DNA of 64,000 nucleotides, from contig CAWGDY010000011.1 in the NCBI GenBank assembly GCA_963821395.1, positions 124,769 to 188,768 of the forward strand, written 5' to 3'. Position numbers and translations under genes: made by a program. Under the pieces are notes generated by a model. That model saw only the letters and a list, made by a program, of their open reading frames with translations. It made no database searches and had not been told where the DNA came from. Positions 9,113 to 39,880 of this stretch are shown piece after piece. The DNA comes from Vicinamibacterales bacterium. Its GTDB lineage: Bacteria > Acidobacteriota > Vicinamibacteria > Vicinamibacterales > JAMQPK01. The number at the start of each line of letters is the position of its first letter. Position 1 is the stretch's first letter.

Positions 9113-9135
9113 GTAGCGCAGGGCTTTAGCCCTGC
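9113..9135 (+). repeat. GTAG-type REP palindrome
   Basis: gtagcgcagggctttagccctgc. Confidence 0.75.
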
Positions 9136-11499: not shown

Positions 11500-11636
11500 T
11501 TAGGTGCGTTAGGTGCGTTGGATGCGAGAGGTGCGAGAGGTGCGAGAGGTGCGAGAGGTGCGAGAGGTGCGAGAACCCGCACCCGTCGCACCTGACGCAC
11601 CCAACGCACCCAACGCACCTAGCGTGTCGCACCTAG
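11500..11636. repeat. Inverted pair of 9-mer tandem arrays ((ag/tt)aggtgcg)n ... (cgcacc-NNN)n
   Basis: Left arm ttaggtgcg x2, ttggatgcg, agaggtgcg x5; right arm cgcacccgt, cgcacctga, cgcacccaa x2, cgcacctag. The right end overlaps the TonB receptor stop codon. Confidence 0.9.
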
Positions 11637-14600
11637 AAGGTGACTCTGGCTCCGATCTGTATGTCGCGCGGCTTCATGACGGTGCTCGAATCGATGTTGT
11701 TGAGTTTCATGAAGTTCGCGTTATTCGGCGTCAACACCATGTTGCCGACACCGAAGAGCGTGTAGTTGGTCGCGTTCAGCGCCTCGATGCGCACCTGCAC
11801 GCGAACCCGGTCGCCCACGGCGAAGTTCTTCGTCACGCCGAGATCGAGGAGGTGGTGTTCCATGAACCGGACGTCCGGCAGCGTCGTCGGGAACTTGCGC
11901 AGGTTCGCCTGGCCGAGCTGGATTTCAGTCGCCGTGAACGTCACCGGCTGCCCGGCTGCGTTGCGGAACGCCTGGCCGTTCATGGTGTAGAAGCAGCTGA
12001 TGTCGATGATCGGAATGTCGACGCCATGGATCTGATTGCCCGAGCCGCCCCACTGCGATTTCAGCTGCTTGGGATCGCCGCATTGCGGGTCATAGTAGGT
12101 GTTCTGGTTGAACACCAGCGGCGAGCCGCTCTGCCATTCGTACTTCGTGCTGAACTGCCACCCGCCGAGGATGGCGTCCGTGACGGCATTCCATCCGTCG
12201 CCGTAGCGGCGTCCGTGCCCGAAGGGCAGCTCGGCCACGCTGGCGAGCGTGATGCGATGCGGCCGGTCGGTCGCACCGATACGATCTTCGAGCTCGTCCC
12301 ACGGATTGAGCGGGGCCACTTGTTCCGTGAGGTGCGACCACGTGTAGGACGTCATCAGCATCAGGCCGTTGGTGAAGCGCTTGTCGAGCCTGAAAATCGC
12401 GCCGTTGTACATGTTCGAGCCGCGCGCCGTTTCCATGCAGAACGTCGTGGCTGTGCCTGTCGCGCAAGGGGCGCCCGACGTCTCGAACTGCGGATAGGCA
12501 TAGAGCAGACGGCGACGCGCGATCGTGGCGCCATTGGTCGCGGGCGAGTCGGGTGTCAGCCCTTGGAATGGATTCGAGACGGTTTGTGTCAGGAATGTTT
12601 CCGCGTCGTTGTCGCGAATCAGGCTCTGCGTGCGGTACTGCTGGGGCACGAAGTTCAGCGGCTCGAGAATCGCCTGATTCGAGCCGTGCTGGCCGATGTA
12701 GGACACCTCGAACAGCATTTCCCAGGGCAGCTGCCGCTCGACGCCGATACTGAATCGCCAGAATTCAGGGTTCACGCGATCGGCATTCCAGATGTTGCCT
12801 GGCGCGTTTCCGAGATTGGTCGAGAGACCCTGTGACGATCCCACCGGTTGTACGAGCTGGCCGCTCGGAACCGGATTGCTCAGGTTGGCCTGGAACGTCA
12901 AGCCCTGGTCGCTCGTCACGGGCACCGGCGTGTTGCGCGAGTACCCGATCTGATTGATGCCTGAGATGAGTCCCGGCACGCCCTGCAGCTGGAAGGGCGC
13001 GATGAATTTGCCGGTGCCACCACGCAGGACGGTCCGGTCGTCGATCTTGAACGAGAAGCCCGCTCGAGGCTGGAAGTTGCTCAAGTCCGCGTTCCATGCG
13101 TGAGACTGATCGCCAGACAGATACGTGTACCCGCCCAGCACGCGGAACTGGCTGGCCGGCCCCGGCACGCCCGCCGGCGGACTGGCCGCGAAGCGCGCCT
13201 GCGCCGCCGCCTCAATCGGATTCGTCGTCGTCAGATCGAACGGCCCGATGTTGCGATTGTCGCTCTCGGTCATGCCGAGCTCGAGGTCGTAGCGCACACC
13301 GAGATTGAGCGTCAGCCGGTCGCTTACGCGCCAGTCGTCGTGCACGAAGAACCCATGGCTGATGACCGTCGTGTCGTATTCGGGACGGAGCTCGATGAAG
13401 GACGTGGTATTGGGCAGGCCGAGCAGGAACGACGCGATCCCCTGACCGTACTGAGCAGTGGCCGCAGCCGTCGCGCGTGTATACGAGCTGTCGAAGGCGT
13501 ACGCGCCGCCGCGCCAGCCCAGGTTGGTCTCCTTCTGCCGCAGGCTCCGCCAGTCGTAGCCGAACTTCATCGTGTGGCCGCCCGTCGTCTTGGTGACGGT
13601 GGCCGCGAACTGCACGTTGTAGAACGGCTGCGTGCGTCCGTTGTTGAAGCCGCTCTGCTGCGCGCCGAGCGTGGCGACGCGGCCCGCGGTCGTCGCGTTC
13701 GACGACTCGATGCTGTAGCGGGGCAGCTGCTCGAAGTCGCCGAACAGCCCGAGCGTGGAAGGGGAGTAGCCGAGGGTGGCGAGGTCGAGATTGTAGAGAG
13801 GGAACAGGTCGTCGTTGAACCGCAGCCAGCTGGCTTTCAGGTCGAGCACCATGCTCTGCGAGAGAACCGCCGTGTGGCCACCTGCCCAATTGTAGTTGAA
13901 GCGGTCAGTCGATCCGCGGGTGATTTCCACGCCGTTCACCGCGCCGGCGAAGTTGAAGCGTTCCTCGCGTCGGAAGTTACGAAGGAATCGCCCGTAGGTC
14001 TTCTGCGACGACTGTCCACTGGTGATCGATCCGCGTCATCGCGAAGTTGTACGCGTATGTCCACGGCTGTTCGATGAAGAAGTTCGACGAGAGGTCTGCT
14101 GCTGGCGTAGCGTTGGGCGCAGGAAAGTAGCTTCAGGATGTTTGCCGCGATCGGGTTGATGCGATTGGCCGGAATGACGTTGCCGGGAAATGGCTGGCGT
14201 GTCACGACGCCGTTGACCAGCTGGGCGGTAGCTGGATCGTAGATCTGTACGCCAAGCGGCAGCAGTTCCCCGAAATCGCCCGACCGCATGCGCGAGGTCG
14301 GAACCGAGGTCGTCAGCGCCTCGACCGTGTCGTCCTGGAGCTTCTCGTACGAGAACATGAAGAACGTCTTGTTCTTGAAGATGGGCCCCGAGACCATACC
14401 GCTGAAGCGGTTGTAGTCGCGCGGCTGCTTGCTCGTGCCCAGGCGATTGGACGCGAAGAGGCTGGCCGATCGCGAGTCGTCACGGTTGTAGAACGACAGG
14501 GCGCCATGGAGCGAGTTGGTGCCGCTCTTGAGCGCCAGGTTCACGCTGCCGGCGCCGGTATGCCCGATCTGGGCGTCGTAGCCGGCGGTCTCGACCTTGA

Positions 14601-15267
14601 ACTCCTCAATGGCGTCGGAGGGCGGCTGGATGCCGACGCGAGCCTGCGAGACGACGTTGCTCGAACCGTCAATCGTGAACTCGCTGTTCAGCGTGCCGGT
14701 GACGGCCGCGCCGCGCAGGTTGTCGTTGTCCATGGGCCGCTGCAGGGCGTACGAGCGCTCGAACGTGGCGCCGGCGACCAGTCGTGTCAGCCCGTAGGCC
14801 GTGCCGTCGCCCAGCGGGATCTCGCTGATGAGCTTGCTGTCGATCACCTGGCCCATCGAGGCCGTGCTCGTCTCGAGCTGCACCGTGTCGGCCACGACCG
14901 ACACCTGCTCTGTCACGCCCGCCGGCTGCAACGTGATGTCGAGCTGCAGACGCTCGCCGACGCGGACCTGCACGGTGGGATGATCCTTGGTCTGAAACCC
15001 GCTGAGCTCCGCCGTCACGCGGTACGACCCGGGCAGCAGGAACAGCGCTGCATATTGACCGGTGTCGTTGGTCACCAGCGACGTGGTGCTGTTGGTGCCG
15101 TTGTTGACGACCGTCACCGTGACGCCGGGCAGGGCGCCGCCGGATGAATCCACGATCAGGCCGGCGATCGATCCGCGCGACTCCTGCGCGATCGCCGTCG
15201 AGCCATACAGAGCCACCGCACAGACGACGCCCGCAATGCCAAGCCAATGCCGGATTGTTCCTGTCAT
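11633..15267 (-). CDS. TonB-dependent receptor with N-terminal carboxypeptidase-regulatory-like domain (Oar-like); frameshifts near 14130 and 14010
   Basis: DSSGGALPGVTVT N-domain, AIEEFKVET plug, DDWRVSDRLTLNLGVRYD, C-terminal PRDIQIGARVTF. Split between ORFs 13936-15267 and 11633-13939. Confidence 0.85.
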
Positions 15268-15283: not shown

Positions 15284-16888
15284 TCATTTGCTCATCGACG
15301 GATCGATCGCGCGAATCAGCACGCTCATGTTCCGAATGAACGCCTCGATGGAAATCCCCGTCAGCGTCTTGTCCGGATACGGCGAGGTATCGGATTCATC
15401 GCCGACGTGTGTCGTTCCGTAGCTGCCCGGCGCCACATTCGTCGAACCGTCGCCCTTGTAGGGGTGGCTGTTGTATCCCAGCGGTGCAAGCCAGTACCCC
15501 TCCTTGTTGAGCGAGGCGATCGAACTGGCCGCTGTGACGCCCGGCGCCGGCATCAGCGCGAAGTACTTCGGCAGCGGCAGCACGCCGTGCCCGGCCACGA
15601 GCGGCGACCCCTTGGTCGCCTGTTCCGGCGTCATCGCGCGGGCGTCGGCGTAGAGCTTTCGCAGCGCCGCGATGTTGATCGGCCGGAAGGAGCTGTAGTG
15701 GCCCAGCGTATCCTTCGGATTGCTGTCCCAGTAGTAGCGGCCGTTGACGACGTTCGAACCTTCACGGTGGATGTACAACGGCTTGTTGGTGCCCACCTCG
15801 ATGAAGGTGGCGTGCGTGCGGCCGGCCGGCGCCACGCCCTGCGGCAGCGCGATCGATTCCAGCCAGTCGATGGCTTCCGGTACGCGCGCCAGAAATTTCG
15901 TGTCGCCCGTGAGCCGGTAGAACTGCACCATCAGCTCGAGGTTGCGCGCGGTGGTGTGCGTCGCCAGCGATCGCGGTTCGTAGGTGCGGGCCTGCACCGG
16001 CTTCAGATCGAGCGTGTACTGCAGCGACCAGCCGGGCTGCGGCGGCCCCTGCTGGGTAACGATGAACGCGTTCATGCCGCGAAGGATCGGATCGAGCAGC
16101 CTCGCATCGCCGAGCGTCTGGTAGCACATCACCAGAAAATCGATGTTCTCGCCCGCGACATCGTCGTTGAACGTCGGATACGCGGTGTAGTCGGGAAGGC
16201 CGCGCGTCGAATGCTCGGCGACGCGTGGATACCGTTGAGGCCACGCGCCGATCGGATACTGGCTGTCGAGCACGAATTGGATGGCCTTGTCGAGAGACGG
16301 CCGGTATTTCGGATCGCGCTTCTCGAGATACAGGCGCAGCAGGAATTTCGCCGACTCGGCGGTGCCGGCATCGTCGAACGTGGCGTTGCCCCAGTAGTGC
16401 TGAAACTCCTCGAGACGCCAGCCGTTTTTTCCGACCGTCTCGTACCACTCCTTGAGCGACCGCTCGCCGGCGAAGTCGGCGACGTAATTCCACCCTCCGG
16501 CTGGATGCTGGGCCCAGATGAGCGCACCGGCGACCTGCTCGGCCGCTTGAAAGTAGAAGTTGTCGCCGGTCGCGTGGTACGCGTCCAGATACAGATGACC
16601 CACGGTGGCGGTGCCCGGCGGCTGGATCCAGATCATCGTCTCGCGGGCTTCCATCTCTCCCCACCGCCGGGACAAGTCCGGCAGGTAGTTCCAGACGTAG
16701 CCACCCTTGTACGCGAGCTTCTCCGTCATGAAGGTGGTGGCGCGCTTCATCGTGGCCATCACTTCGTCGCGCGCCTCGCGGGGTGGCGCCTGCGCCATGG
16801 CACCCGCGCCAGAAAGCGCGAGCGCCGTCAGCACTGCGGCGAGCCGGATCCGTCTGGCGTTCTGATGGATCATCGTTTCTTCCTTCAT
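15284..16888 (-). CDS. pelA: Pectate lyase, polysaccharide lyase family 10
   Basis: Signal peptide; ATFDDAGT, GAWPQRYP, TFNDD, WSLQY and ARTYEP motifs typical of PL10. Confidence 0.8.
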   Translation of the reverse strand: MKEETMIHQNARRIRLAAVLTALALSGAGAMAQAPPREARDEVMATMKRATTFMTEKLAYKGGYVWNYLPDLSRRWGEMEARETMIWIQPPGTATVGHLYLDAYHATGDNFYFQAAEQVAGALIWAQHPAGGWNYVADFAGERSLKEWYETVGKNGWRLEEFQHYWGNATFDDAGTAESAKFLLRLYLEKRDPKYRPSLDKAIQFVLDSQYPIGAWPQRYPRVAEHSTRGLPDYTAYPTFNDDVAGENIDFLVMCYQTLGDARLLDPILRGMNAFIVTQQGPPQPGWSLQYTLDLKPVQARTYEPRSLATHTTARNLELMVQFYRLTGDTKFLARVPEAIDWLESIALPQGVAPAGRTHATFIEVGTNKPLYIHREGSNVVNGRYYWDSNPKDTLGHYSSFRPINIAALRKLYADARAMTPEQATKGSPLVAGHGVLPLPKYFALMPAPGVTAASSIASLNKEGYWLAPLGYNSHPYKGDGSTNVAPGSYGTTHVGDESDTSPYPDKTLTGISIEAFIRNMSVLIRAIDPSMSK

Positions 16889-18098
16889 GCCACTCCGCGC
16901 ACGGCGTACGCCGGGGCCACGACCAGCGCAGCCGCTCCTCGCAAACGCGGAAACTCCGTCGCTGTGACAGGACGCACATCGGTCGCCGCCGCGGACGCCG
17001 TCAGCGCGCGCTCGGCCATCGCGGACCGCACGGTCGTTTCAATCAGGTCCCACGCCCGCGTAATTTCACCGCCGATGTACACGCAGGCGGGATCGAACGT
17101 ATTGACGACCGCCGCGAGCCCGAGCCCGAGATATCGCGCCGTCGATTCAATGGCGCCGACGGCTTTGGCGTCTCTCCCCGCGCGCGCGCGATCAGGTCGT
17201 CGATGGTGAACTGCGGGCCTTCGGCCGACGCGAGCGCATCGTGGCTGAGCGGTTGACCGAAGTAACGGGCGAGCGTCGCACGATTCGAGATGTAGGCTTC
17301 CCAGCAGCCATTCGAGCCGCACGAGCAGCGGGGGCCGTCGAGCGAGAGCGGGACGTGTCCGAACTCGCCGGCCACGTTGTTGCGTCCCCGCAGCAACTCG
17401 CCGTGAATCATGACGCCCACACCCACGCCGTCGGAAACCGAGACGAACACGACGTCGCGCATGGCGCCGGTGGATTCGCGCACGGCCCACGCCTGGGCCA
17501 GAGCACAGGCACGCCCGGAGTTCTCGATCTGCACGGGCAGACCGGTGGCGGCGGCGAGCGGCCCTCGCAGGTCGACGTCCTTCCAGCCCAGCGTCGGCGC
17601 ATGGATCACGCGCATCGTCGAGTGTTCGACCATGCCGGGCACGACGACGCCCACGCCTTCGCAGGCGTCGACCTCGCGATTCTCGACGAGCATCCGCTTG
17701 ATGCGCTCGGCCATGGCCGTCGCCAGCTCGGCCGGATCGCGCAGGGTCGGCATGCGAATCACTTCCGTCGTGGGATTGCCACGCAGATCGGCGAGCATCA
17801 GAAACGTCTCGCTGGCCCTGATGTCGGCGGCGACCACCGCCCGCCGCCGGGAATCGATATAAAGGAAGGTAGGCTTGCGGCCGCGAACCGTCTGTCCCGT
17901 CGCGCCCTCGAAAATCACGCCGTCGGTGATGAGGTCGTTGACGATGCGCGAGATCGCGCCGCGGCGCACGTTCATCATGCGGGCCAGGTCGGCGCGGGAA
18001 ATGGGTTGCTGTGCGCGGACCAGGTTCAGCACAATGCTGCGGTTGATCTCGCGCGAGGTACCCCGCGTGGCGACGCGAAAATGAGCTGCGCCTTTCAT
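16885..18098 (-). CDS. ROK family transcriptional repressor (XylR/NagC-like; frameshift near 17175)
   Basis: N-terminal HTH (ISRADLAR...GRKP), AGEFGH and CSCGSNGCWE; the C-terminus continues in ORF 16885-17490. Confidence 0.85.
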
Positions 18099-18242
18099 TG
18101 AACCATTAAGGGACTAAATCGCCAAAATGAACGGCCCGCAGGAGAGCCAGAACGAAACAAGCCCGTTAATAACGGTGTTTAATTTGTCTCAGTTGAGGAC
18201 TATATACGCCCCTCGAGGCCCAGGTGTCAAGTGAACTCCCGA

Positions 18243-18265
18243 GCGGGGCTGAAGCCCCGCCCTAC
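18243..18265 (-). repeat. GTAG-type REP palindrome
   Basis: Reverse strand reads gtagggcggggcttcagccccgc. Confidence 0.75.
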
Positions 18266-18295
18266 GAGGTGGTGCGCGTATGCTAGGTGAGGTTG

Positions 18296-18472
18296 ATGGA
18301 CGCTGAGCGCTGGGCGCGGGTCAAGGAACTCTTCCACGCCGCGCTCGAGCGCGATCCCACCCAGCGCGATGCCTTCCTGGCCGAGGCCTGCCGTGACGAC
18401 GCCGATCCCCAGGGGCTTCGCACGGAGCTCACCGAAGCCCGCCGCGCCGTGGCGCGCCTTCGAGGGAACTGA
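18296..18472 (+). CDS. 58-aa mini-protein or pseudogene: N-terminal helical module fused to the C-terminal helix of the ECF-associated Ser/Thr kinases
   Basis: [29 protein letters not shown] matches the kinase N-termini (DWARVKEIFHGALERE). [23 protein letters not shown] matches the kinase C-termini ([21 protein letters not shown]). Confidence 0.7.
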
Positions 18473-18485
18473 GAATAGAGATTCG

Positions 18486-20456
18486 ATGTCATCCAATCCA
18501 TTCGACTCAGACGATGCTGCGTTGTTCGAGATCTCCACGCGCGCTCGCGGACCAGCGGGCGTCCTGCCCTTGACGGCCGAAATGCTGCGAGAGCGCCCCT
18601 CGGGCGATTTGTTCGGATGGACGCAGAACGCCGGCATGGGTTGGAATCCCGCCGCGCTCGGCGGCAACGAGTTCCTGATGCTCTCGACCCATGGTGGCAT
18701 CCGTGCTGCCGATGGAACGCCCGTCGCGCTCGGGTATCACACCGGACATTGGGAGGTGGGCCTGCTGCTCGAGGCCGCTGCGGCGGTTTTCAAGAGCGCC
18801 GGGGCGATTCCGTTTGCGGCGGCCTGTACCGATCCATGCGACGGGCGATCGCAGGGCACGACGGCGATGTTCGACAGCTTGCCGTTTCGCAACGACGCCG
18901 CGACGGTGTTTCGGCGCCTCATCCGATCGCTTCCGACTCGGCGCGGTGTGCTCGGCGTGGCGACCTGCGACAAGGGGCTGCCGGCCATGATGATGGCCCT
19001 CGCGGCGACCCACGATCTTCCGGTGGTGCTCGTGCCTGGTGGTGTCACGTTGCTTCCCGAAGAAGGCGAAGACGCCGGCAAGATTCAGACAATCGGCGTC
19101 CGGTTCGTGCACGGATCCATCACGCTCGAAGAAGCGGCCGATCTGGGATGCCGGGCCTGCGCCTCGCCGGGCGGCGGCTGCCAGTTTCTCGGAACCGCGG
19201 CGACCGCGCAGGTGGTGGGAGAGGCGCTCGGATTGTCGCTGGGACACTCGGCGCTTGCGCCGTCCGGTCATCCGATCTGGATCGACATGGCGCGGCGATC
19301 GGCGACGGCGCTCATGAATCTCGAGGCCCGGCATATCACGGCCTCCGACATCGTGTCCGACGCCGCGGTGCGCAACGCGCTCGTCGTGTTTGCCGCGTTC
19401 GGCGGATCGACGAATCTCATTCTGCACCTTCCGGCTATCGCCCACGCGGCCGGCCTTACGCGGCCGACGGCCGAAGACTGGGCCGCCGTGAACAAGCAGG
19501 TGCCGCGACTGGTCGACGCGCTGCCGAACGGCCCACGCAATCACCCGACCGTGCAGGTCTTCATGGCCGGCGGCGTGCCGGAGGTGATGCTGCACCTGCG
19601 CCGCCTGGGATTGCTGGAGACACGCGTCACCACGGCTGGCGGGGACTCGCTCGATGCTCAACTGGATGCGTGGGAATCGTCGGAGAGACGGACGCGTCTG
19701 CGGGACCAGCTCAGAAAGGAAGGCGTCGACCCCGACGACGTGATCGTCTCGCCCGAACACGCACGCACCCGCGGCCTGACGTCCACCGTCTGCTTTCCGA
19801 AAGGCAACATCGGGCCGGACGGCGCCGTCATCAAGAGCACCGCGATCGATGCGTCGGTCGTCGATGGCGACGGCGTGTATCGGATGACCGGTCCGGCGAA
19901 GGTGTTTCTGTCCGAGCGGGCGGCTATGGACGCGATCAAGGCCAAGCGTGTGAAGCCCGGCGACGTGATTGTGTTGATTTGCCGCGGGCCGATGGGCGCC
20001 GGCATGGAAGAGACCTATCAGATTACGAGCGCGCTGCGCCACCTGCCGTTCGGCAAACACGTGGCCGTGATTACCGACGCCAGGTTCAGCGGCGTGTCCA
20101 CCGGTGCGTGCATCGGGCACGTATCGCCGGAGGCGCTGGCGGGCGGCCCGGTCGGCAAGCTGCGCGATGGCGACGTCATCGAGATCGTGATCAACCGGGC
20201 AACGCTCGAAGGTACCGTCAACCTGATCGGCGAGAACTTCGTCGGGCAGAGTGCCTCCGACGGATCGAGAATCCTCGAGGCGCGCGACGTGCGGTCCGAT
20301 CTCGCCGCCGACGCGGCGCTTCCGGACGACACGCGTATCTGGGCCGCGCTTCAGGATGCGAGCGGGGGCACGTGGGGCGGCGCCGTCTACGACGCCGAAT
20401 CGATCGTGCGCACCCTCGCGGCCGGCAAGGCCGCCCTCTCCAAATCCAAAAACTAG
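18486..20456 (+). CDS. yjhG: YjhG/YagF family D-xylonate dehydratase (IlvD/Edd superfamily)
   Basis: [41 protein letters not shown] and [16 protein letters not shown] motifs. Confidence 0.9.
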
Positions 20457-29026: not shown

Positions 29027-29638
29027 CTACCGATCGTTGCGCGTCACGGCCGCCGATCGGATGACGTCGATCTCGCCGGATCGGAACGACCAGTCACGCT
29101 GGGCGTTCTGACGCAGTTCGGCATTCGACCATCCCGCCCGCATCAGCCCGCTCTCGGCATGGCGATTGGTGTCGAGCAGGAGGTGTCCGATCTCGTGGGC
29201 GATCGCGCGGCCGAGCAGCTGCTGGAAGTCGAGATGCGCGTCGCGGGATACCGTCCGGACGAGGTCGGCGTACACCGTCGCCAGAAACGGCACGCCTTCG
29301 GCGATGTTCACGAGCGCAAACCCCATCGACACGTAACGCTTGCCGGGAAGGGGATTGGCCGCCTGGAGCCGCAGGATGACTTCGTTGGCCTTGAGGGGCT
29401 CGCTGCATTGCGCCGAGGTCCCGGCAATTTCCTTGTCCCGATACCAGCAATCCACCCATGACAGCTCGATGCCGGCGTCGTGGAACACCGCCTCGACGTG
29501 CGGGCGGGCGGCGGAGAGGTCCTCGGGTGACACGCCGAAGTTGTTGTAGGTCCTGACCGTCAGGGTGGTCTGTGCCTGCCCGACGAGGGGGGCCGCCAAC
29601 ACCATCGCCGCGACTGCCCCGAATGCTCTCCAGTTCAT
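29027..29638 (-). CDS. Exported protein with zinc-metallopeptidase-like HExxH motif
   Basis: Signal peptide; AIAHEIGHLLLDTNRHAESGLM gives HExxH, a third His and a Met-turn-like GLM. Confidence 0.7.
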   Translation of the reverse strand: MNWRAFGAVAAMVLAAPLVGQAQTTLTVRTYNNFGVSPEDLSAARPHVEAVFHDAGIELSWVDCWYRDKEIAGTSAQCSEPLKANEVILRLQAANPLPGKRYVSMGFALVNIAEGVPFLATVYADLVRTVSRDAHLDFQQLLGRAIAHEIGHLLLDTNRHAESGLMRAGWSNAELRQNAQRDWSFRSGEIDVIRSAAVTRNDR

Positions 29639-29686: not shown

Positions 29687-29719
29687 ACTGCCGTCAAATG
29701 TTGGGTTTGAGGGGAGGCG

Positions 29720-29747
29720 TGAGTGAAAACGAGCACGGATTACGCGT
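29720..29747 (+). promoter_or_regulatory. Putative ECF autoregulatory promoter TGAGTGA-N16-CGCGT
   Basis: TGAGTGA aaacgagcacggatta CGCGT, directly upstream of the ECF gene. Confidence 0.65.
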
Positions 29748-29781
29748 TATAGAAGGATGGGCGTATCCTTTTCCCGAATCA

Positions 29782-30351
29782 GTGGACGCTTCTCGGTCTG
29801 AGGTCACCCGGCTACTCAAGGAGTGGAGCGACGGGCGTCAGGACGCCCTGGACATGCTCCTGCCGCAGATCTATGCCGAGCTGCGCCGGCTGGCGGGCAG
29901 CTATCTGAGGCGGGAGCGCTCCGACCACACCTTGCAGGCCACGGCCCTCGTGCACGAAGCCTTCATCAGGCTGGTCGATCAGCGGGCCGTGCGCTGGCAG
30001 AACCGCGCCCACTTTTTCGGCATCGCGGCACAGGCGATGCGGCGGATTCTGGTGGACCATGCGCGCGCGCATGCGGCCGAAAAGCGGGGCTCGGGCGAGC
30101 GCGCCGTGTCGCTCGACGAAGCCGTCGTCATGGTGGGCGCGCCCGATGTGGATCTGCTCGCCCTGGACGAAGTGCTCACCCGGCTGGCCGCGATCGACCC
30201 TCAACAGAGCCGCGTCGTCGAGCTGCGTTTCTTCGGCGGCCTCACGATGGAGGAGACGGCGGAGGTGATGGACATATCGCCGGCGACCGTCGGCAGGGAA
30301 TGGACGCTCGCCAAGGCGTGGTTGTACGCCGAACTGTCGAGGTCGGAGTGA
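29782..30351 (+). CDS. ECF sigma factor, kinase-associated (ECF43-like / Sigma70_ECF)
   Basis: EVTRLLKEW, YAELRRLA, HTLQATALVHEA, AMRRILVDHAR and VELRFFGGLT. GTGA overlap with the kinase gene. Start could be ATG 29757 if one T is an error. Confidence 0.9.
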   Translation: MDASRSEVTRLLKEWSDGRQDALDMLLPQIYAELRRLAGSYLRRERSDHTLQATALVHEAFIRLVDQRAVRWQNRAHFFGIAAQAMRRILVDHARAHAAEKRGSGERAVSLDEAVVMVGAPDVDLLALDEVLTRLAAIDPQQSRVVELRFFGGLTMEETAEVMDISPATVGREWTLAKAWLYAELSRSE

Positions 30352-33300
30352 ACGACTGGGCCCGCGTCAAAGAGATCTTTCACGGCGCGCTCGAGCGCGA
30401 GCCGGTGGATCGCGTGGCCTTTCTGAATGCATCGTGCGGTCACGAGGGCGATGTACGCGCCGAGGTCGAGCGCCTTCTGGCGGCGCACGAACGAGCCGGT
30501 TCGTTCATCGAGGAGTCGCCTGTCGCGATGACGGGACGGGTGATCGGCCACTACCGGATCGATCGCGCGCTTGCCGCCGGCGGCATGGGCCAGGTGTATG
30601 TGGCGCGCGACGTCGAGCTCGACCGGACCGTCGCGATCAAGGTTGCGCTGGGCAACGATGGCGATGCCCATGCGCGCCTGAAGCGCGAGGCGCAGCATGC
30701 CTCGCAGTTGAATCACCCGAACATCTGCACCATCCACGAAATCGGCGCCTTCGACGGCCAGCCGTTCATCGCGATGGAGTATGTCGAAGGGCAACGCCTG
30801 AGCGATGTCGTCGCGACCGGTAGTTTGCCGATCGAAAACGTCGCGCGATATGGAAGTCAGATCGCGAATGCGCTGGCGCATGCGCATCATCACGGCGTGA
30901 TTCATCGCGATCTCAAGAGCGCCAACGTGATGGTCACTTCGGACGAGCGCGTCAAGGTGCTCGATTTCGGACTGGCGCGGCGTCATTCGCCGGATCACCT
31001 CAAAGATCTGTCGATGTCGCGCGAGTCGGTGACCGGGCACGAGCTGGTAGCGGGCACGCTTTCCTGTATGGCGCCCGAACTGTTGCGTGGAGGTACCGCA
31101 GACGCGCGCAGCGATATCTGGGCGCTCGGCTTGCTGTTGTACGAAATGGCCACCGGGAAACGGCCGTTCACCGGTTCGACGGGATTTGAATTGACCGGCG
31201 CGATTCTTCATCAGCCGCCTGCGCCGTTGCCCGCCGACGTGCCTTTGTCTCTCAAGCAGATCATCCTGCGGTGCCTCGAGAAGGAACCCCGGCAGCGCTA
31301 TCAGCAGGCCGGCGATGTCCGTGCTGCGCTCGAGTTGATGAAGCCGCATCGAGAGCCTCAGCCCCATCGCGCGCCATTGCCGTGGCGGCGATCGCGCTGG
31401 TAGTCGCCGCGGTTATCGGCCTTCCGTATGCGTGGCGCAACTCGAGCCCCGCGTCTTCTGCTGCAGCTACCGCGGTGTCGCGTCCGAATGCGATCGCCGT
31501 GATGAATTTCGAGAACGTTGCAGGGACGCCCGACACGGCGTGGCTGTCGAAGGGCGTGCCGCGGATGCTGGTGACCGGACTCGCTCAGACGAACGGCCTG
31601 CATATCGTCAGCGCGCCGCACCTCGAGGAAGCGGCGAGAAAGATGGGCGGGACGAACATCGACGTGCTCAGCAGTGCCCAGTTCGCCGACGTGGCGCGGC
31701 AATCGGGGGCGAGTGCGGTCGTGAGTGGCACCATCATGAGAGCCGGCAATGAGATCCGCGTCGACGTGCAGCTCCACGATTTGGCGAGCGGCCGTGTGAT
31801 CGGTGCAGACACGGCCCGTGGGACCGACGTGTTCGCCATTGCCGACGACCTGACGACTCGCATTCGAATGGCTGCCGGCTTTTCGGATTCGGCCGGCGTA
31901 CGGCGTGTCTCTGATGTGTCTTCCTCATCTCTCGAGGCATACCGCTTGTATTCGGAGGGCGTCGACGCGTGTCTGAACATGCGGTGGGTCGACGCGTTGA
32001 AACTGCTCGACGAGGCGGTCGCCATCGATCCGGGATTCGCCGAAGCGTATGTGCAGCTGGCGTCGGTCAGGACCGCTCATGGATTGCCCGCGACGACCAA
32101 ACGCGAGGAGTATCTGCGGAAGGCGGCGCAGTATTCGGATCGCCTGAGCACACAGCAGCGCCGGTTTCTGGAACTGCAGCTGGCGCGCGGGAATCCGACG
32201 AAGGTGAGACCGCTGCTCGACGCGTTCATCCGGGATTATCCGCTCGTCGAGGAGGCGTACAGCCAAGCGACCAGCCTCTACAATCCGGTGCTCAGCGGTT
32301 ACTTCGACCCGGACAAGCTCGTGTCGTTGACCGAGGCCGGCGTCAGGTCGATGCCGGCTTCCGGTCCGGCGCGTAACTCCTACGGCTACGGGTTGTTGCT
32401 GGCGGGACGTTATGCCTGAGGGCGCTTCGCGAGTTCGAAACATATGCGCGATTGGCGCCACGTGAGCCGAATCCTTACGACAGCATGGGCGAGGCGTACC
32501 TGAACCTGGGAAGACCCGAACGAGCGCTCGAGAGTTATTCGCGTGCCCGTTCGATCGATCCGACATTCGACACGCGCGCAATGGACAGGCGTTGACGGTT
32601 GCGGCATTGGGCCGGTACGATGAGGCGCTCGGTCTGAATGCAGACCTGGTCGTTGAAAGGGCGATCCTGCTTACACGAGTTGGACGGTACCGTGAAGCGG
32701 CGCAGCTACTGGCGACGGGCAACCGTGGAGGTCTCGCGTTGGGCTTCGACGCACTCGCCGATGGAACGTTGCATCTGATGGCAGGGGTCATTGCGCTGGA
32801 GCGCCGCGACGGTGACGGCGCCTCGAGAGAGGTGGGCGTGGCGGAGCGCATCTTTGATGCAGAGCGGCATCAGCGGACGCCACTGTATTTGACGGTGACG
32901 CATCTCTTGGCCGGAGTGGCAGCAATCGCAAACGGCAACATCTCTGAGGCGCGCTCGCGGCTCGACCGGCAGAAGCAATTGTATAGACCAGATTTCGACA
33001 TGGAAGCGTGGTTCGTGAGAGCTCTGGAAGGCGAGCTTGCGCTGGCCTCCGGCGACGCGCAAAAAGCGGCCGTCGCCTTTTCCACCGGCGAACCCAGGCG
33101 CAGACTCTTCGGATTCGATCCGGTTGGCTTCGGTGTGTTTGTCAATCACCTTCCGTCCCGCGACGGTCTCGCGCGCGCCGCGAAAGCCCGCGGCGACCTT
33201 GCCGGAGCGATCGCGGCCTACCGCAAGCTGCTGACACCGAACGCCGATTCGATCTGGGTGAGCGCGCTCGAGCCGCGGTACGTGCTCGAGCTCGCGAGAT

Positions 33301-33437
33301 TACTGGAGAAGACGGGCGACAGGACGGGTGCGTTGAAAGAGTTCGAGCGGTTCCTGGATTTGTGGAAGCAGGCCGACCCCGGGTTGCCCGAGCTCGCCGA
33401 GGCCCGTCGCGCGGTCGCCAGGCTTCATGGCTCATAA
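30348..33437 (+). CDS. Ser/Thr protein kinase 1 with TM, TolB-like/FlgO domain and TPRs (frameshifts near 31380, 32415, 32575)
   Basis: AGGMGQVY, VAIK, HRDLKSAN, DFG, GTLSCMAPE, DIWALG; IAVMNFEN; TPR-like repeats. Split over ORFs 29823-31403, 31271-32419 and 32592-33437. Confidence 0.85.
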
Positions 33438-36400
33438 CCCCGACTGGCCTCGCGTCAAAGAGCTCTTCCACGGCGCGCTCGAGCGCCAGCCGGAGGATCG
33501 CGTGGCGTTTGTGCACACGTCGTGCGACGAGGCCGAGGTGCGTGCGGAAGTGGAGCGCCTGCTCGCGGCGCACCAGCAGGCCGGCGGCTTCATCGAGCAG
33601 TCGCCCGTTGCCATGGCCGGCCGTGTCATCGGCCACTACCAGATCGAACGCGCACTCGGCGCCGGCGGTATGGGGGCGGTCTATCTCGCGCGAGACCTCG
33701 AGCTCGGCCGGCCGGTCGCCATCAAGATTGCGATCGGCAGCGATGAGGACGCGAAGGCGAGGTTGAAGCGCGAAGCGCAATATGCCTCGCAGCTGAATCA
33801 TCCGCACATCTGCACGATTCACGAAGTCGGGACCGCCGACGATCAACCCTTCATCGTGATGGAGTTTGTCGAAGGGCAGCGGCTGTCGGACCTGATTCCC
33901 GCACAGGGACTGCCCGTTGACGATGTGAAGCGGTATGGGATGCAGATCGCGGATGCGCTGGCGCACGCACACCACCATGGCGTGACCCATCGCGATCTGA
34001 AAGCCGCGAACATCGTCGTCACGCCGGAAGGCCGTGCGAAAGTGCTCGATTTCGGGCTGGCGCGCCGGGTTCCGGCCGAGACGCTCAAGGATCTGTCCGA
34101 GTCCCGCCAATCGGTCGCGGACGAGAGCGGGATGATCGCCGGGACGCTGGCGTGCATGGCGCCCGAGCTCTTCCGCGGCGCGACGCCCGACGCACGCAGC
34201 GACATCTGGTCGCTTGGCGTGCTCCTCTACGAAATGGCGACGGGGACGCGACCGTTCTCGGGCGCGACCGGTTTCGAGTTGAGCGGCGCCATTCTGCACG
34301 AGCCGCCCGCACCGTGGCCCGACCGGGTGCCACAGTCGATCCGGACGATCGCCAAGCGGTGTCTCGAAAAAGATCCTGGCGAACGTTACGCGGACGCTGA
34401 AGACGTTCGACGGGCCATCGGTGACGCATCGTTTGCGGGGCCGACTCGTATCGTGCCGCGGCCGGCAGCGGCCGCCGCCAGGCCCTCGCTTCTCTCGCGG
34501 TGCTGGCGATCCCGCATCGCGTGGGCCGTCGCCGCCGCGCTCGTCCTGGGCGGCGTATACCGCATGCAACGCTCGACTCAGGAAGAAGCGCCGGTCGCAT
34601 TGGGCGCGTCCGGCCGTCCGGCGATTGCGGTCTTGAACTTCGAGGCAGCGGGAGGGACCGATGCCGCGTGGCTGTCCCAGGGCATCCCGAGCATGCTGTT
34701 GACCGGCCTCGCGCAGACCCGCGGGCTCGATCTCGTCAGCACGCAGCGCCTGGTTGAGGCCGCACGGCAGCAGGGCGCACCAGATCTCAAAACACTCGAG
34801 TTCGACAGGGCTGTCCAGGTGGCGAAGCACGCCGGCGCCGGCGCGATCGTCACCGGCAGCGTCCACAAGAACGGTGCGGACATTCGGATTGACGCGCGCG
34901 TGGAAGATCTTGCAAGCGGCCGAGTCCTCACCGCGCAGAGCGTGCGAGGCACCGATGCGTTTGCGCTCGTCGATCAGCTTGCCGCGCGCATTCGCGACAG
35001 CGTGGGCATCCTCGCCGCGACGGGCATTCGGCACACCACCGACGTCTCCACATCCTCGCTCGACGCCTTCCGGTTGTATTCCATCGGAGCCGATGCGTTC
35101 GCGAACTTTCGCGGGCCTGAGGCCGCCAGAGCGCTGGAGCAGGCCGTGCAGGTCGACCCTGCCTTCGCCGAGGCGTACCTCGAGCTGGCGTCGGTGGCCG
35201 GGTCCAACGGCGAACCCGCCAAGCGGCGCGAGTATCTGGCCAAGGCCGCCCGGTACGCCGATCGCCTCAGCGAGCGCCGGCGGCTTCTGCTGGATGCCCA
35301 GGTGGCACGGGACAAAGGGAATGTTGCCGCGACTACCCGCGCGTTGGACGAGCTCATAGCGAAGTTTCCGGATACCGAGATCGCGTACACGATTGCGGGG
35401 CTCCACTACGGTGCCGAGCTTCGTGAAACGGACAAACAGCTCCAGATCATGAAAACCGGCATCGCTGCGCTGCCGGCGTCGGGACCGGTGTTGAACAACT
35501 ACGGATATGCGTTGATGGAAGCCGGACGGTATGCGGAGGGCCTCCGCGCGTTCGAGCGGTACGTGGAGCTTGAGCCGCGCGAAGCGAATTCTTATGACAG
35601 TCTTGCCGAGGGGTACTTGAGAGGAGGATCGGCTGAGAAGGCGGTGGAGCTCTACCAGCAAGCGATCGCCGTCGATCCCACCTTCTCCGGTTCGCGGATC
35701 ACCCTCGCGTGGGCGCTCGCCGTCCTGGGACGATACGACGAGGCCATGGCACTCAGGACGCCGCTCAAATCTGAGGAAGCCTTTCTGCTCTCACGGCTGG
35801 GGCGTTATAGGGAAGCGGCAACGGCGCTTGCCGCCGGGAGGCAAGAGGCCGAACGGGACGCGAACCTCGCCGAGCAGTCCGAGTACAGCCTGATCGCGGC
35901 TGTGATTGCGCTGGAACGACAGGATTACGCGCGAGCGTTCGACGAGCTGTCTCTGGCGGAACGTGCGGTCGCCGGCGATACCAGGTTCCGTCAGCGCCGG
36001 CACGGCGTGCTCATCAACTTACTGCGAGGCATCGCCGACCTGGCCACTGGTCAGCGCGATGCCGTGCGTGCGCGTCAGTCTCTTCTCGAATCGTTGCACG
36101 CGCCCGGGATCGCCGAGGAAAGATTCTGGTATCGGACGCTGGAAGGAGAGGTCGCCCTTGCGCGCGGCGACATCCCGCGCGCAAGGGCCGCGTTTGCCGG
36201 CGCTGAACCGACGAAGCCGATTTTTTTCAAGATGCAGCGAGGCTGGCTCCCGACGCTCGTGAACGGTCTTTCGTTCAGGGATGGTGCGGCGCGTGCCGCG
36301 AAAGCACAGGGCAACCTCACCGAGGCGATACAACTCTACCGCCGGCTGCTGGTCTATGGTCCGGAACCGAAATTTGTCTCGGTGGTCGAGCCTCGATATG

Positions 36401-36810
36401 TGCTCGAGCTGGCAAGGCTGCTGGAGAAAACAGGCGACGGCGGCAACGCGTTGAAAGAGTACGATCGCTTTCTGGATTTCTGGAAGCGGGCCGATCCGGG
36501 GTTGCCCGAGCTCGCCGAGGCCCGTCGCGCGGTCGCCAGGCTTCAGGGCTCATCGCCTATCGCCCGTCGCCCAAAGACCATAGCCCATCGCCCAGCAGAA
36601 GGCTGTTATCATCGGATCAATGCGGCTGCTGGTTCCTTTCTTCACGGTCGCCCTCGCAGTGCCGCTGGTTACCGCCGCACAAACCGCGGAGCCGCCACCG
36701 CGATGGACGATCAGCCCGCGCGCCGGCCCTGCGTCGCAGGGTTGGCCTCGGAATCCGCCGCCGCGGTTCACGATTCCCGCGCGCGGAACAAGCGGACTGC
36801 CTCTTCCTGA
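33427..36810 (+). CDS. Ser/Thr protein kinase 2, paralog of kinase 1 (homology ends near 36553; ORF reads through a heptamer array)
   Basis: GAGGMGAVY, HRDLKAAN, DFG, GTLACMAPE, TM segment, IAVLNFE, TPRs. Confidence 0.88.
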   Translation: MAHNPDWPRVKELFHGALERQPEDRVAFVHTSCDEAEVRAEVERLLAAHQQAGGFIEQSPVAMAGRVIGHYQIERALGAGGMGAVYLARDLELGRPVAIKIAIGSDEDAKARLKREAQYASQLNHPHICTIHEVGTADDQPFIVMEFVEGQRLSDLIPAQGLPVDDVKRYGMQIADALAHAHHHGVTHRDLKAANIVVTPEGRAKVLDFGLARRVPAETLKDLSESRQSVADESGMIAGTLACMAPELFRGATPDARSDIWSLGVLLYEMATGTRPFSGATGFELSGAILHEPPAPWPDRVPQSIRTIAKRCLEKDPGERYADAEDVRRAIGDASFAGPTRIVPRPAAAAARPSLLSRCWRSRIAWAVAAALVLGGVYRMQRSTQEEAPVALGASGRPAIAVLNFEAAGGTDAAWLSQGIPSMLLTGLAQTRGLDLVSTQRLVEAARQQGAPDLKTLEFDRAVQVAKHAGAGAIVTGSVHKNGADIRIDARVEDLASGRVLTAQSVRGTDAFALVDQLAARIRDSVGILAATGIRHTTDVSTSSLDAFRLYSIGADAFANFRGPEAARALEQAVQVDPAFAEAYLELASVAGSNGEPAKRREYLAKAARYADRLSERRRLLLDAQVARDKGNVAATTRALDELIAKFPDTEIAYTIAGLHYGAELRETDKQLQIMKTGIAALPASGPVLNNYGYALMEAGRYAEGLRAFERYVELEPREANSYDSLAEGYLRGGSAEKAVELYQQAIAVDPTFSGSRITLAWALAVLGRYDEAMALRTPLKSEEAFLLSRLGRYREAATALAAGRQEAERDANLAEQSEYSLIAAVIALERQDYARAFDELSLAERAVAGDTRFRQRRHGVLINLLRGIADLATGQRDAVRARQSLLESLHAPGIAEERFWYRTLEGEVALARGDIPRARAAFAGAEPTKPIFFKMQRGWLPTLVNGLSFRDGAARAAKAQGNLTEAIQLYRRLLVYGPEPKFVSVVEPRYVLELARLLEKTGDGGNALKEYDRFLDFWKRADPGLPELAEARRAVARLQGSSPIARRPKTIAHRPAEGCYHRINAAAGSFLHGRPRSAAGYRRTNRGAATAMDDQPARRPCVAGLASESAAAVHDSRARNKRTASS
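36551..36592. repeat. Heptamer array (catcgcc)x6, degenerate
   Basis: catcgcc tatcgcc cgtcgcc caaagac catagcc catcgcc. Confidence 0.75.
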
Positions 36811-37390: not shown

Positions 37391-39880
37391 GTGCCGGCGC
37401 TGGTGTGTGGCGCGGCGATCGGTCTTTCGATCGCCGCCGCTCCCGTGGTGTCCGGATTCGGCCGTGCCCAGTCCGGCTTCAGACAGACCCAGTCGGCACC
37501 GGCAACCACCTCGCCTGAGCAGGCACTCGTCTCGCGCTACTGCGTAACCTGTCACAACGATCGATCGAAAGCCGGCGGGCTGTCGCTCGAAAAACTGGAC
37601 GTGTCCAACATCGGCGCGCACGCGGAGGTCTGGGAAAAAGTCGTCCAGAAGCTGCATGGCCACCTGATGCCACCGCCCGGGCGTCCGAAGCCGGACGAGA
37701 CGGCGCTCGACGGGTTGACGGCGTATCTCGAAACGTCGCTCGATCGATCGGCCGGCGAGAACCCGAATCCGGGCCGTACCGAGGCGCTTCATCGTCTCAA
37801 TCGCGCGGAGTATCGCAACGCGGTTCGCGATCTCCTCGCGCTCGACATCGACGTCAGCGCGATGCTGCCCGCCGACGACATCAGCTACGGCTTCGACAAC
37901 ATCGCCGGCGTGCAGCGGATGTCGCCGACGCTCATGGAACGGTACCTCGCCGCGGCTCAGAAGATCAGTTCCGTGGCGGTTGGCGCGTCGCCGCGTGCGG
38001 CGACCACCGAGACCGTTCTCGTGCCTTCCGATCTGCGCCAGGACGATCGGGTCGAGGGGCTGCCGTTTGGCACGCGCGGCGGCGCGCTGATCCGGCACAA
38101 TTTTCCGCGCGATGGCACCTATAGCGTCCGCGTACAGTTGACGCGCTACCTGGGTGCCAGCTTTGACGATATTCCCGCGTTCGACCAGTCGCAGCGGCTC
38201 GAGCTGAGCGTGGACGGCACGCCCGTTCACGTGTTCGAGCTCACCACCCCCACCAAAGAAGGCCGCGGATATTCAGGACCGAATCGCCGCGCGCTCGACG
38301 CGGATTGGCAGGTTCGCTTCCAGGCGAAGGCCGGCGGGCGGGACGTCGCGCTCACGTTTCTCAACCGGACGCCGGCGCTGCTCGAAAACCTGCTCGAGCC
38401 GTTCGACAAACCGACGCCTGGTGGACCGAACGGGTACTACACGACGCAGAAGGGCGCGTACCTTCGAAGCATCGAGATCAGCGGGCCGTACGAAGCCACT
38501 GGCGCCGGCGATACGCCCAGCCGTCAGCGGATCTTCGTCTGCCGTCCAAAGAGCGCGCCCTCGTCGGTAGTCCAGCCCTCGTCGGTGGCGCCGTCCCCAT
38601 CGGTAGCGCAGGGCTTCAGCCCTGCCTCCGACGAAACCGCGTGTGCGAAAACCATCCTGCGGACGCTGGCCCGCCGTGCGTTCAGACGTCCGGTCACCGA
38701 CGCCGACATCCAGACCGTCATGGCGTCGTACGAAGAAGGACACGCCGCGCGCGGCTTCGAGCTCGGCATCGAACGTGCTGTAGAAAGCCTGCTGGTCAGT
38801 CCGGAATTCTTGTACCGAATCGAGCGCGAGCCCGCGGATGGCGCGTCGATTTACCGCATCAGCGATCTCGAGCTGGCCTCGCGGCTGTCCTTTTTCCTCT
38901 GGAGCAGCATCCCGGACGACGCGCTGATCGATGCGGCGGCGTCGGGCAAATTGCGGAACCCGGCTGTCCTCGAGGGCCACGTGCGGCGCATGCTCGCCGA
39001 TCCGCGTGCCGACGCGCTCGTCAGGAATTTCGTGGGGCAGTGGCTGTTCCTCCGCAACCTCCCGACGGTGCTGCCCGATCCCAGGCGCGAGCTCGATTTC
39101 GATGAAGATCTGCGCCAGGGCTTCAGGCGCGAGACCGAGCTCTTTGCCGGCAGCATTCTGAAGGAAGATCGCAGCGTGCTCGAGCTGCTGACCGCGAACT
39201 ATACGTTCGTGAACGAGCGGCTCGCGAAGCACTACGGCATCCCGAACATACGGGGCGCGCACTTCCGGCGCGTCGAGCAGACCGACGATCGCCGGCGCGG
39301 CATCCTTGGCCACGGGAGCGTGCTTGCGGTGACCTCGTACCCGCACCGGACCTCGCCGGTCGTACGCGGCAAGTGGATTCTCGAGAATCTGCTCGGCACG
39401 CCGGTGCCGCCTCCGCTGCCGGACGTGCCCGCGTTGGTGGAGAAGCCGAACCCGGCCGACGAAAACCAGACGATGCGGCAGCGGATCGCGCAGCATCGCG
39501 CGAACCCCGCGTGCGCGGGCTGCCACTCGATGATGGATCCGCTGGGGTTGTCGCTGGAGAACTTCGACATGGTGGGGCGCTGGCGCGACGTCGACGAGGC
39601 GCTCGCGCCCATCGACGCCTCCGGTGGGCTGCCCGATGGCCGGACGTTCCAGGGGCCTGCCGGGCTGCGCGGGATCGTGGCCGGCAATCCCGATCAGTTC
39701 GTGAGAACGCTCACCGGGAAACTGATGACCTACGCGCTCGGCCGCGGGCTCGAGTACTACGACATGCCCGCGGTGCGCACGATCGCGCGCGGTTCGGCGA
39801 AGCAGAATTACCGTGCGTCCGCCCTTATCGTGGGCATCGTCAACAGTCGTCCCTTCCAGATGCGGAGGCGGCAGTCATGA
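37391..39880 (+). CDS. Planctomycete-type cytochrome c protein (DUF1587/1595/1592/1588/1585 domains)
   Basis: CVTCH, MPPPG, HRLNRAEYRNAVRDLL, GFDN, ELASRLSFFLWSSIPD, TSPVVRGKW, CAGCH. Confidence 0.9.
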   Translation: MPALVCGAAIGLSIAAAPVVSGFGRAQSGFRQTQSAPATTSPEQALVSRYCVTCHNDRSKAGGLSLEKLDVSNIGAHAEVWEKVVQKLHGHLMPPPGRPKPDETALDGLTAYLETSLDRSAGENPNPGRTEALHRLNRAEYRNAVRDLLALDIDVSAMLPADDISYGFDNIAGVQRMSPTLMERYLAAAQKISSVAVGASPRAATTETVLVPSDLRQDDRVEGLPFGTRGGALIRHNFPRDGTYSVRVQLTRYLGASFDDIPAFDQSQRLELSVDGTPVHVFELTTPTKEGRGYSGPNRRALDADWQVRFQAKAGGRDVALTFLNRTPALLENLLEPFDKPTPGGPNGYYTTQKGAYLRSIEISGPYEATGAGDTPSRQRIFVCRPKSAPSSVVQPSSVAPSPSVAQGFSPASDETACAKTILRTLARRAFRRPVTDADIQTVMASYEEGHAARGFELGIERAVESLLVSPEFLYRIEREPADGASIYRISDLELASRLSFFLWSSIPDDALIDAAASGKLRNPAVLEGHVRRMLADPRADALVRNFVGQWLFLRNLPTVLPDPRRELDFDEDLRQGFRRETELFAGSILKEDRSVLELLTANYTFVNERLAKHYGIPNIRGAHFRRVEQTDDRRRGILGHGSVLAVTSYPHRTSPVVRGKWILENLLGTPVPPPLPDVPALVEKPNPADENQTMRQRIAQHRANPACAGCHSMMDPLGLSLENFDMVGRWRDVDEALAPIDASGGLPDGRTFQGPAGLRGIVAGNPDQFVRTLTGKLMTYALGRGLEYYDMPAVRTIARGSAKQNYRASALIVGIVNSRPFQMRRRQS
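38558..38625 (+). repeat. In-frame GTAG REP plus two decayed 18-nt copies inside the DUF1592 gene
   Basis: gtagcgcagggcttcagccctgc (38603-38625) differs by 1 nt from the intergenic REP at 9113. It encodes PSSVVQ PSSVAP SPSVAQGFSPA. Confidence 0.8.

Follow-up and report, generated by a model that had tools for sequence, protein, structure and literature searches.

Does an open reading frame of 58 codons that begins and ends like a large membrane kinase represent the scar of a lost gene, or a small regulator in its own right? The question is raised by a locus directly upstream of a xylonate dehydratase gene of the yjhG/yagF family, where an open reading frame (the mini ORF) combines the N-terminal and C-terminal ends of two kinases, K1 and K2, that are encoded elsewhere in the same window (the entire stretch of 64,000 nucleotides that was analyzed). 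In the preliminary description, it had been proposed that the mini ORF is either the clean internal-deletion scar of a third kinase paralog or a retained, kinase-less decoy. Our analysis speaks for the scar. The origin of the mini ORF by deletion is close to certain, and it most probably represents the ordinary scar of a gene and not a new regulator. We put the probability at about 0.7 that the mini ORF is what a single in-place deletion of 2,970 nt has left of a third paralog, K3, and that it is a neutral, fairly recent and functionless scar. The features that bear on this conclusion are collected in Table 1.

Table 1. Features of the window that are discussed in the text, with positions counted from its first nucleotide.
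Feature	Position	Strand	Remarks
CarboxypepD_reg + OMP_b-brl_4 outer-membrane receptor	11633-15267	-	Two ORFs, split at 13936-13939
ROK-family regulator, divergent, upstream of the mini ORF	16888..18098	-	Pfam ROK; two frames versus single 404-aa homologs
ROK frame change	near 17175	-	Coincides with a run of G
GC-rich palindrome, 18 nt, GCRGGGCTNNAGCCCYGC	18243..18260	+	36 nt upstream of the mini ORF ATG; context, not part of the gene
Shine-Dalgarno-like purine-rich stretch AGGTGAGG	18285..18292	+	Putative, read directly in the sequence; 3 nt before the mini ORF ATG
Mini ORF	18296..18472	+	ATG start, 58 codons, TGA stop; read as in-frame deletion allele of kinase paralog K3
Head part of the mini ORF, codons 1-44	18296..18427	+	Helices 1 and 2 and start of helix 3 of the pre-kinase module
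Tail part of the mini ORF, codons 45-58	18428..18469	+	Last 14 kinase codons, C-terminal helix after the TPR region
yjhG/yagF-family xylonate dehydratase	18486..20456	+	TIGR03432, 1138.7 bits; Pfam ILVD_EDD_N and ILV_EDD_C
CarboxypepD_reg-containing gene	22421-24606	-	Three frames versus one 790-aa ORF in locus L001
Kinase-associated ECF sigma factor	29698..30351	+	PF07638, 198.7 bits; TIGR02999, 226 bits versus cut-off 126; start codon uncertain
Kinase K1	30345..33437	+	Head, Pkinase, TM, TolB_N/FlgO-like, TPR, tail; frames 3, 2, 1, 3
K1 frameshifts	near 31334-31490, 32413-32419, 32568-32571	+	Frames 3, 2, 1, 3 relative to K2 and P0005
Kinase K2	33427..36810	+	Intact 1127-aa frame; same architecture as K1

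Both ends of the mini ORF resemble K1 and K2 well beyond chance. When the 1159 peptides of a six-frame translation of the window were searched with a head profile that had been built without the mini ORF, the matches were just K1, K2 and the mini ORF itself (E 3.3e-22 for the latter). A tail profile made from six kinase C-termini picked out the same three sequences, the mini ORF with an E-value of 3.9e-7. In pairwise comparisons with K2, 17 of 27 head residues (E 5e-10) and, with two gaps, 17 of 23 tail residues (E 6e-5) are identical. The earlier statement that the N-terminal part is similar to the pre-kinase module of both kinases therefore holds. At the DNA level, the identity to K1 and K2 amounts to about 82% in the head and to about 75-80%, with small gaps, in the tail, so that the relationship of the mini ORF to these two kinases must be old. 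The head HMM covers the mini ORF at profile positions 1-42 of about 66 only. According to Pfam scans, a Pkinase domain is present in K1, K2 and the full-length homolog P0004 (see below) and absent from the 58-aa product, for which the sole match (DUF6862, E 0.008) lies below the cut-off. The membrane segment, the extracytoplasmic sensor and the TPR region are missing as well, and the last 14 residues of the C-terminal region remain. The mini ORF is not adjacent to the ECF sigma gene, its neighbors being the divergent ROK gene and yjhG. The sigma gene, the only one with a PF07638 match in the window, follows about 11.2 kb downstream, in agreement with the distance of roughly 12 kb given in the preliminary description.

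The parent of the mini ORF can be named more precisely. A search of longer proteins with the mini ORF gave 37 matches at E <= 0.01 among 321 candidates. The best three, P0004 (1048 aa), P0005 (1047 aa) and the 461-aa partial P0006, are 93% identical to mini ORF residues 1-45. The source of P0006 is named Vicinamibacterales bacterium, and P0004 and P0005 probably come from close relatives, also Vicinamibacterales. Both P0004 and P0005 have the full kinase architecture, in P0004 with a Pkinase domain at residues 77-327 and TPRs. The first 44 residues of P0004 and P0005 (from MDAERW onwards) each share 42 of 44 residues with the mini ORF, and their last 14 residues share 13 of 14 (BLASTP; head, E 2e-28; tail, E 4e-6). 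Relative to P0004, the mini ORF consists of codons 1-44 and 1035-1048, joined in frame, and lacks 990 codons or 2,970 nt, close to the 3 kb that had been estimated at the outset. The two ends are thus collinear with intact orthologs of 1047-1048 aa, which strongly supports the clean internal-deletion scar of a third paralog that had been suggested, and all catalytic and sensor parts are gone. P0004 and P0005 are 92.8% identical to each other and about 50-51% identical to K2. On this comparison, K3 is to be regarded as a paralog distinct from K1 and K2.

The junction itself has to be moved. It had been placed at ADP (residues 36-38), and the last 23 or so residues had accordingly been assigned to the kinase C-terminus. 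This assignment is correct for the last 14 residues; the others are native head sequence, and the real join comes after residue 44, seven residues later. In P0004 and P0005, ADPQGLRTE belongs to the head and is followed by IDRLLAAH, which leads into the kinase domain. A join at ADP was rejected, as the subsequent QGLRTE is identical at six of six positions to the ortholog heads, and the ortholog tails read D-L-[AP]-E-L. From K1 and K2 alone, the ADP placement was reasonable, because their tail reads ADPGLPEL; the native head end and the true tail look alike because both contain ADP..L..E. The join lies between T43 and L45, with E44 common to both sides and a visible overlap of about one codon (GAG). 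There are no informative repeats around it, the best direct repeat in the mini ORF region being 17 nt long at 76% identity.

The tail also tells from which gene it came. It ends in ARLRGN like the tails of P0004 and P0005, and not in HGS like K1 or QGS like K2. This shared ending indicates K3 itself as the source of the tail and speaks against gene conversion. A tail copied from K1 or K2 was considered and rejected on the same grounds, and also because the identity to these kinases is 11 of 14 residues, compared with 13 of 14 for the K3 orthologs. The deleted part of K3 was not found elsewhere in the 64-kb window, where tblastn with P0005 detected only K1, K2 and the 45-residue head. Compared over its 58 residues, the mini ORF departs from either ortholog, P0004 or P0005, at 3 positions, and the two orthologs depart from each other at 4. 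At most two of the 58 residues (positions 22 and 46, both variable) are changed specifically in the mini ORF. The comparison gives no indication of accelerated change, which would fit a recent deletion and would fit retained constraint too.

As initially described, the mini ORF is intact, and 13 nt separate its stop codon from the yjhG start codon. An alternative GTG start three codons upstream would extend the product to 61 aa. Because the deletion is in frame and has spared the start and stop codons as well as the distance to the following gene, the remnant continues to be an intact ORF and is predicted by gene callers; it is present as P0001 in the protein collection that we searched. A promoter scan around the mini ORF detected none, terminator-like matches there were weak, and an Rfam scan of positions 17900-18700 returned nothing relevant. 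The 96-nt region upstream of the mini ORF, including the palindrome, is predicted to fold no better than shuffled sequence (z 0.15).

The palindrome is a separate matter. Its 18 nt occur three times in the window (9118-9135, 18243-18260 and 38608-38625), compared with zero expected occurrences, and once across 80 related loci. The copy at 38608 lies within a 23-codon in-frame insertion of the gene at 37391..39880, relative to the ortholog in locus L001. In these respects, the palindrome resembles a small element of the REP or MITE type, able to reside within coding sequence.

Together, the data suggest the following model for the origin of the mini ORF. The transmembrane Ser/Thr kinases of the PknS type that are found with the ECF sigma factor in this genome had a third paralog, K3. 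A single deletion would have removed codons 45-1034, and with them the end of helix 3, the Hanks kinase, the membrane segment, the TolB-like/FlgO-like periplasmic region and the TPR array, and would have joined codon 44 in frame to the last 14 codons. Left over would be the ribosome-binding region and start codon of K3, 44 codons of the head and 14 of the tail, the stop codon of K3 and the spacer of 13 nt to yjhG. If made at all, the product would be a soluble helical peptide of 58 aa. As such a peptide could neither phosphorylate nor sense, K3 signaling would be lost, and the peptide likely has no function. The in-frame join was perhaps better tolerated, since this is the sole frame that retains the native stop: according to our computation of the out-of-frame joins, one fuses the head to YjhG and the other ends about 85 nt inside yjhG. 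The intact state of the ORF should not be overrated. The prior for an in-frame join is one in three, and an ORF of 174 nt stays open for a long time by default; together with the small size, this makes the intact ORF uninformative on function.

The head-plus-tail form appears to be confined to this genome. In the range of 31-102 aa, three of four candidates passed, namely the mini ORF itself, P0002 (in which a frameshift comes after the head) and P0003 (a truncated kinase), so that the combination of head and tail was found in no other protein. Among 188 retrieved proteins, only four full-length kinases and the mini ORF carry the kinase tail motif at the C-terminus, and none of the other 117 retrieved proteins of at most 200 aa has a head plus a tail. 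The mini ORF resembles pseudogenes formed by a single internal deletion in that its ends are collinear with an intact ortholog, its interior is absent and its form occurs in one genome. It differs from them in that the deletion is in frame and the start, stop and spacing to the next gene have been kept.

P0002, a 61-aa protein from a contig of 1,725 nt, deserves a comment of its own. Its residues 1-40 correspond to the head and are followed by 13 residues that would fit the +1 frame of the ortholog sequence LRTEIDRLLAAHA; beyond these, the sequence jumps to a kinase-domain motif at about residue 131 of P0004. We consider P0002 another damaged K3-like copy, which may reflect either independent decay of this paralog or the poor quality of a short contig.

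Whether the deletion occurred in place was addressed by comparison with sequences from relatives. P0189, the best homolog of the ROK regulator, is identical in tblastn at 305 of 318 positions in frame -3 and at 96 of 97 in frame -2 (96-99% per segment). The longest contig of the P0189 cluster measures 17,970 nt, which is exactly the size of the single contig that carries P0004. This suggests that the ROK gene and full-length K3 are probably linked in a close relative, and the coincidence in size provides indirect evidence that the mini ORF and full-length K3 occupy the same locus. We infer that the deletion took place at this site, and recently.

The neighborhood of yjhG was scanned in genome contigs as well. 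The 80 loci obtained include none with a YjhG identity of 100%, the best identity being 86%. A K3 ortholog beside yjhG was found in none of them; 12 loci contain a kinase match, with a best kinase-domain identity to P0005 of 41%. In the closest loci, L001 and L002 (84-86% YjhG identity), an outer-membrane-like gene on the opposite strand lies upstream of yjhG, and there is no reading frame similar to the mini ORF upstream of yjhG. The gene order of L001 is scrambled relative to the window; for L002, which spans 11 kb, the matching blocks of the window are too few for a judgment. For the window span compared (18.5-42.3 kb), the blocks of L001 follow each other in the order 26.7-28.9k, yjhG, 22.4-24.6k, 20.9-22.4k and 37.5-42.3k; L001 has neither the ECF-K1-K2 block nor the ROK-K3 region. 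Of 70 loci in which the sequence upstream extends over 3 kb or more, five (L009, L010, L015, L016 and L058) have a Ser/Thr kinase gene directly before yjhG and on the same strand. These kinases have other architectures and no head module; the one in L010 overlaps the yjhG start by 4 nt, and the one in L058 ends about 300 nt upstream. With this frequency, a kinase gene next to yjhG is not an unusual arrangement in Acidobacteriota, where the linkage of kinases and xylonate dehydratase genes recurs.

The relatives of K3 within the window are K1 and K2. The C-terminus of K2 that is homologous to the other kinases ends at aa 1042 (ARLQGS) and is followed by 85 extra codons (36553-36810). Where K1 reads TCA TAA, K2 reads TCA TCG, so that the stop seen in K1 is absent from K2; either the stop has been lost or the low-complexity extension is real. 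The sigma factor encoded next to K1 has no match in the PDB at E <= 0.001 (phmmer). In its sequence (LQATALVHEAF), a by-eye alignment puts QATA in the place of the DAED of canonical ECFs and the STTA of EcfP. According to a review, ECF43 sigma factors have no DAED motif in region 2.2, and EcfP carries STTA, the second threonine of which is phosphorylated. The Hanks-type kinases PknS of Xanthomonas citri and PknT of Vibrio parahaemolyticus are described as phosphorylating ECF43 sigma factors (PMC13147305, PMC8999054). The parallel with these systems lies in the adjacency of K1 and K2 to an ECF sigma gene and in the match of the head-module profile to PknS residues 7-56. The mini ORF, in contrast, has no kinase domain, membrane segment or sensor and lies 11 kb from the sigma gene; as judged by its similarities, it is a fragment of a PknS/PknT-like kinase and not a member of the group.

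The ECF-kinase locus is also adjoined by a gene (29027-29638, minus strand) for a secreted-looking protein of roughly 200 aa with an HExxH motif and no Pfam match. A similar HExxH protein is encoded next to a head-bearing kinase in locus L050 (21187-21789, minus strand), and this type of protein may be a conserved partner of head-bearing kinases.

The N-terminal module that K3 shared with K1 and K2 is itself widespread. It comprises roughly 55 aa with the pattern W..V.ELFhaALE..P..R.AFL..AC..D..LR.EVE.LL and is encoded at 30354-30530 in K1 and at 33427-33621 in K2. In an exhaustive HMMER search, its profile matched 1535 representative proteins at E <= 0.001. The module occurs in one to eight tandem copies before kinase domains; several proteins have two stretches, and P0041 has eight, followed by a Pkinase domain at residues 520-783. 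No Pfam or NCBIfam model reached its cut-off on the module in any of 22 members, two of which gave weak TPR_14 matches. A stretch of the module aligns with the consensus TPR stretch EYYQKALELDPRSAEAW, as would a TPR helix-turn-helix, but the module stays below the Pfam and NCBIfam cut-offs, and the PDB matches of this kind are short (17 positions), with each repeat individually insignificant. The module thus appears, from these searches, to be an undescribed domain family. Against the PDB, the profile matched chain 9eed_A at residues 7-56 (E 7.1e-6), and the K2 head alone gave an E-value of 0.16. Entry 9EED is PknS(1-364) of Xanthomonas citri, which, according to the paper, phosphorylates the ECF43 sigma factor EcfK; the paper also states that residues 1-81 cannot be seen in the crystal and are predicted to form three to four helices on a flexible linker (PMC13147305). 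We found no function assigned to the module in the literature, and the passages of the PknS paper that are available contain no functional test of the N-terminus. A role of the module in docking the sigma factor is possible, and the interpretation of the mini ORF as a decoy inherits the same uncertainty.

Several explanations other than a neutral scar have to be weighed. One is that the dominant genome carries a full-length K3, and that the contig represents a collapsed consensus or a minority deletion variant. The quality of the consensus gives some reason for concern. At least seven single-base frameshifts are spread over four genes other than the mini ORF (K1, the ROK gene, the CarboxypepD_reg-containing gene and the split receptor gene), and one of the sites is a G-run. 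Either the consensus is indel-prone or the genome is accumulating broken genes, and the assembly quality is doubtful. K1 may likewise be either a pseudogene or the victim of consensus errors, and because the frameshifts could be consensus errors, we have not used the state of K1 as evidence for a decay of the kinase family. However, noise in the form of single-base indels does not produce a loss of 2,970 nt with an exact in-frame join. Nor is there a long repeat between head and tail on which an assembly could have collapsed: the best one is the imperfect 17-nt repeat already mentioned, and the similarity of head to tail is limited to ADP..L..E. We therefore regard an artefact of assembly or population structure as unlikely.

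Alternatively, the peptide might be functionless and yet translation from its start to its stop might be under selection, so that transcription and translation reach yjhG. A retained leader ORF of this kind would make sense of the short spacing to yjhG and of the fate of the two alternative frames, which would run into the dehydratase gene. It would also agree with the result that no terminator-like site was found between the mini ORF and yjhG, and with the kinase genes that abut yjhG in other Acidobacteriota, up to the overlap in L010. Against this idea, yjhG of L001 and L002 manages without such an upstream ORF, and with one sequence at hand the idea makes the same prediction as neutrality. 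Selection for a leader ORF is improbable in our view.

[quoted passage not shown] In the plant literature, microProteins are small dominant-negative proteins that arise from larger regulators by loss of a functional domain. The mini ORF is similar to them in keeping an interaction-like module without the catalytic part, as a decoy would need, and it is different in that it is not conserved, has no known partner and has had part of the module replaced. In favor of a decoy, the reading frame is uninterrupted across the join and keeps the native start, preceded by a Shine-Dalgarno-like stretch; of about 55 module residues, 44 are native, and no excess of amino-acid changes is visible. The module also behaves like an independent unit, judging by the one to eight tandem copies that precede kinase domains, and has a homolog in the flexible N-terminal region of PknS, a kinase that phosphorylates EcfK. 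These points are outweighed by others. Among all proteins retrieved, the head-plus-tail form is limited to this contig. The second half of module helix 3, with the consensus LRxEVESLL, has been replaced: of this stretch, LRTE is retained in the mini ORF and is directly followed by the tail. The module has no known partner, and the available passages of the PknS paper test none. Head-bearing kinases occur also without a PF07638 sigma gene alongside (L050), and no motif of at least 7 nt is shared between the upstream regions of the mini ORF and the ECF gene. A decoy is thus very unlikely. The more specific proposal, an accidental microprotein of 58 aa with native helices 1 and 2 and a chimeric helix 3 that would act as a dominant-negative brake on the phosphorylation of the ECF sigma factor by K1 and K2, deserves very little credence either.

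Finally, it is extremely improbable that the mini ORF has always encoded a stand-alone head-module protein, outside any long gene, since the many short module proteins of 50-200 aa in the representative library that might have spoken for it look, where inspected, like fragments or broken genes (their ends consist of unrelated or frameshifted sequence, or they stop where a kinase domain begins, and none has the kinase C-terminal tail), and since the mini ORF tail is nearly identical to the C-terminus of the very orthologs that match its head.

We thus return to the neutral scar as the best explanation of the locus. The mini ORF documents a case of an in-frame deletion that leaves behind an intact-looking ORF, which can easily be annotated as a hypothetical protein. 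The analysis fixes the true junction and names the parent gene. If the dominant-negative microprotein were real after all, it would be a bacterial case of a regulator born from a gene scar. In any event, the mini ORF draws attention to the widespread N-terminal module of its parent, and the function of this module is the real question behind the idea of a decoy.
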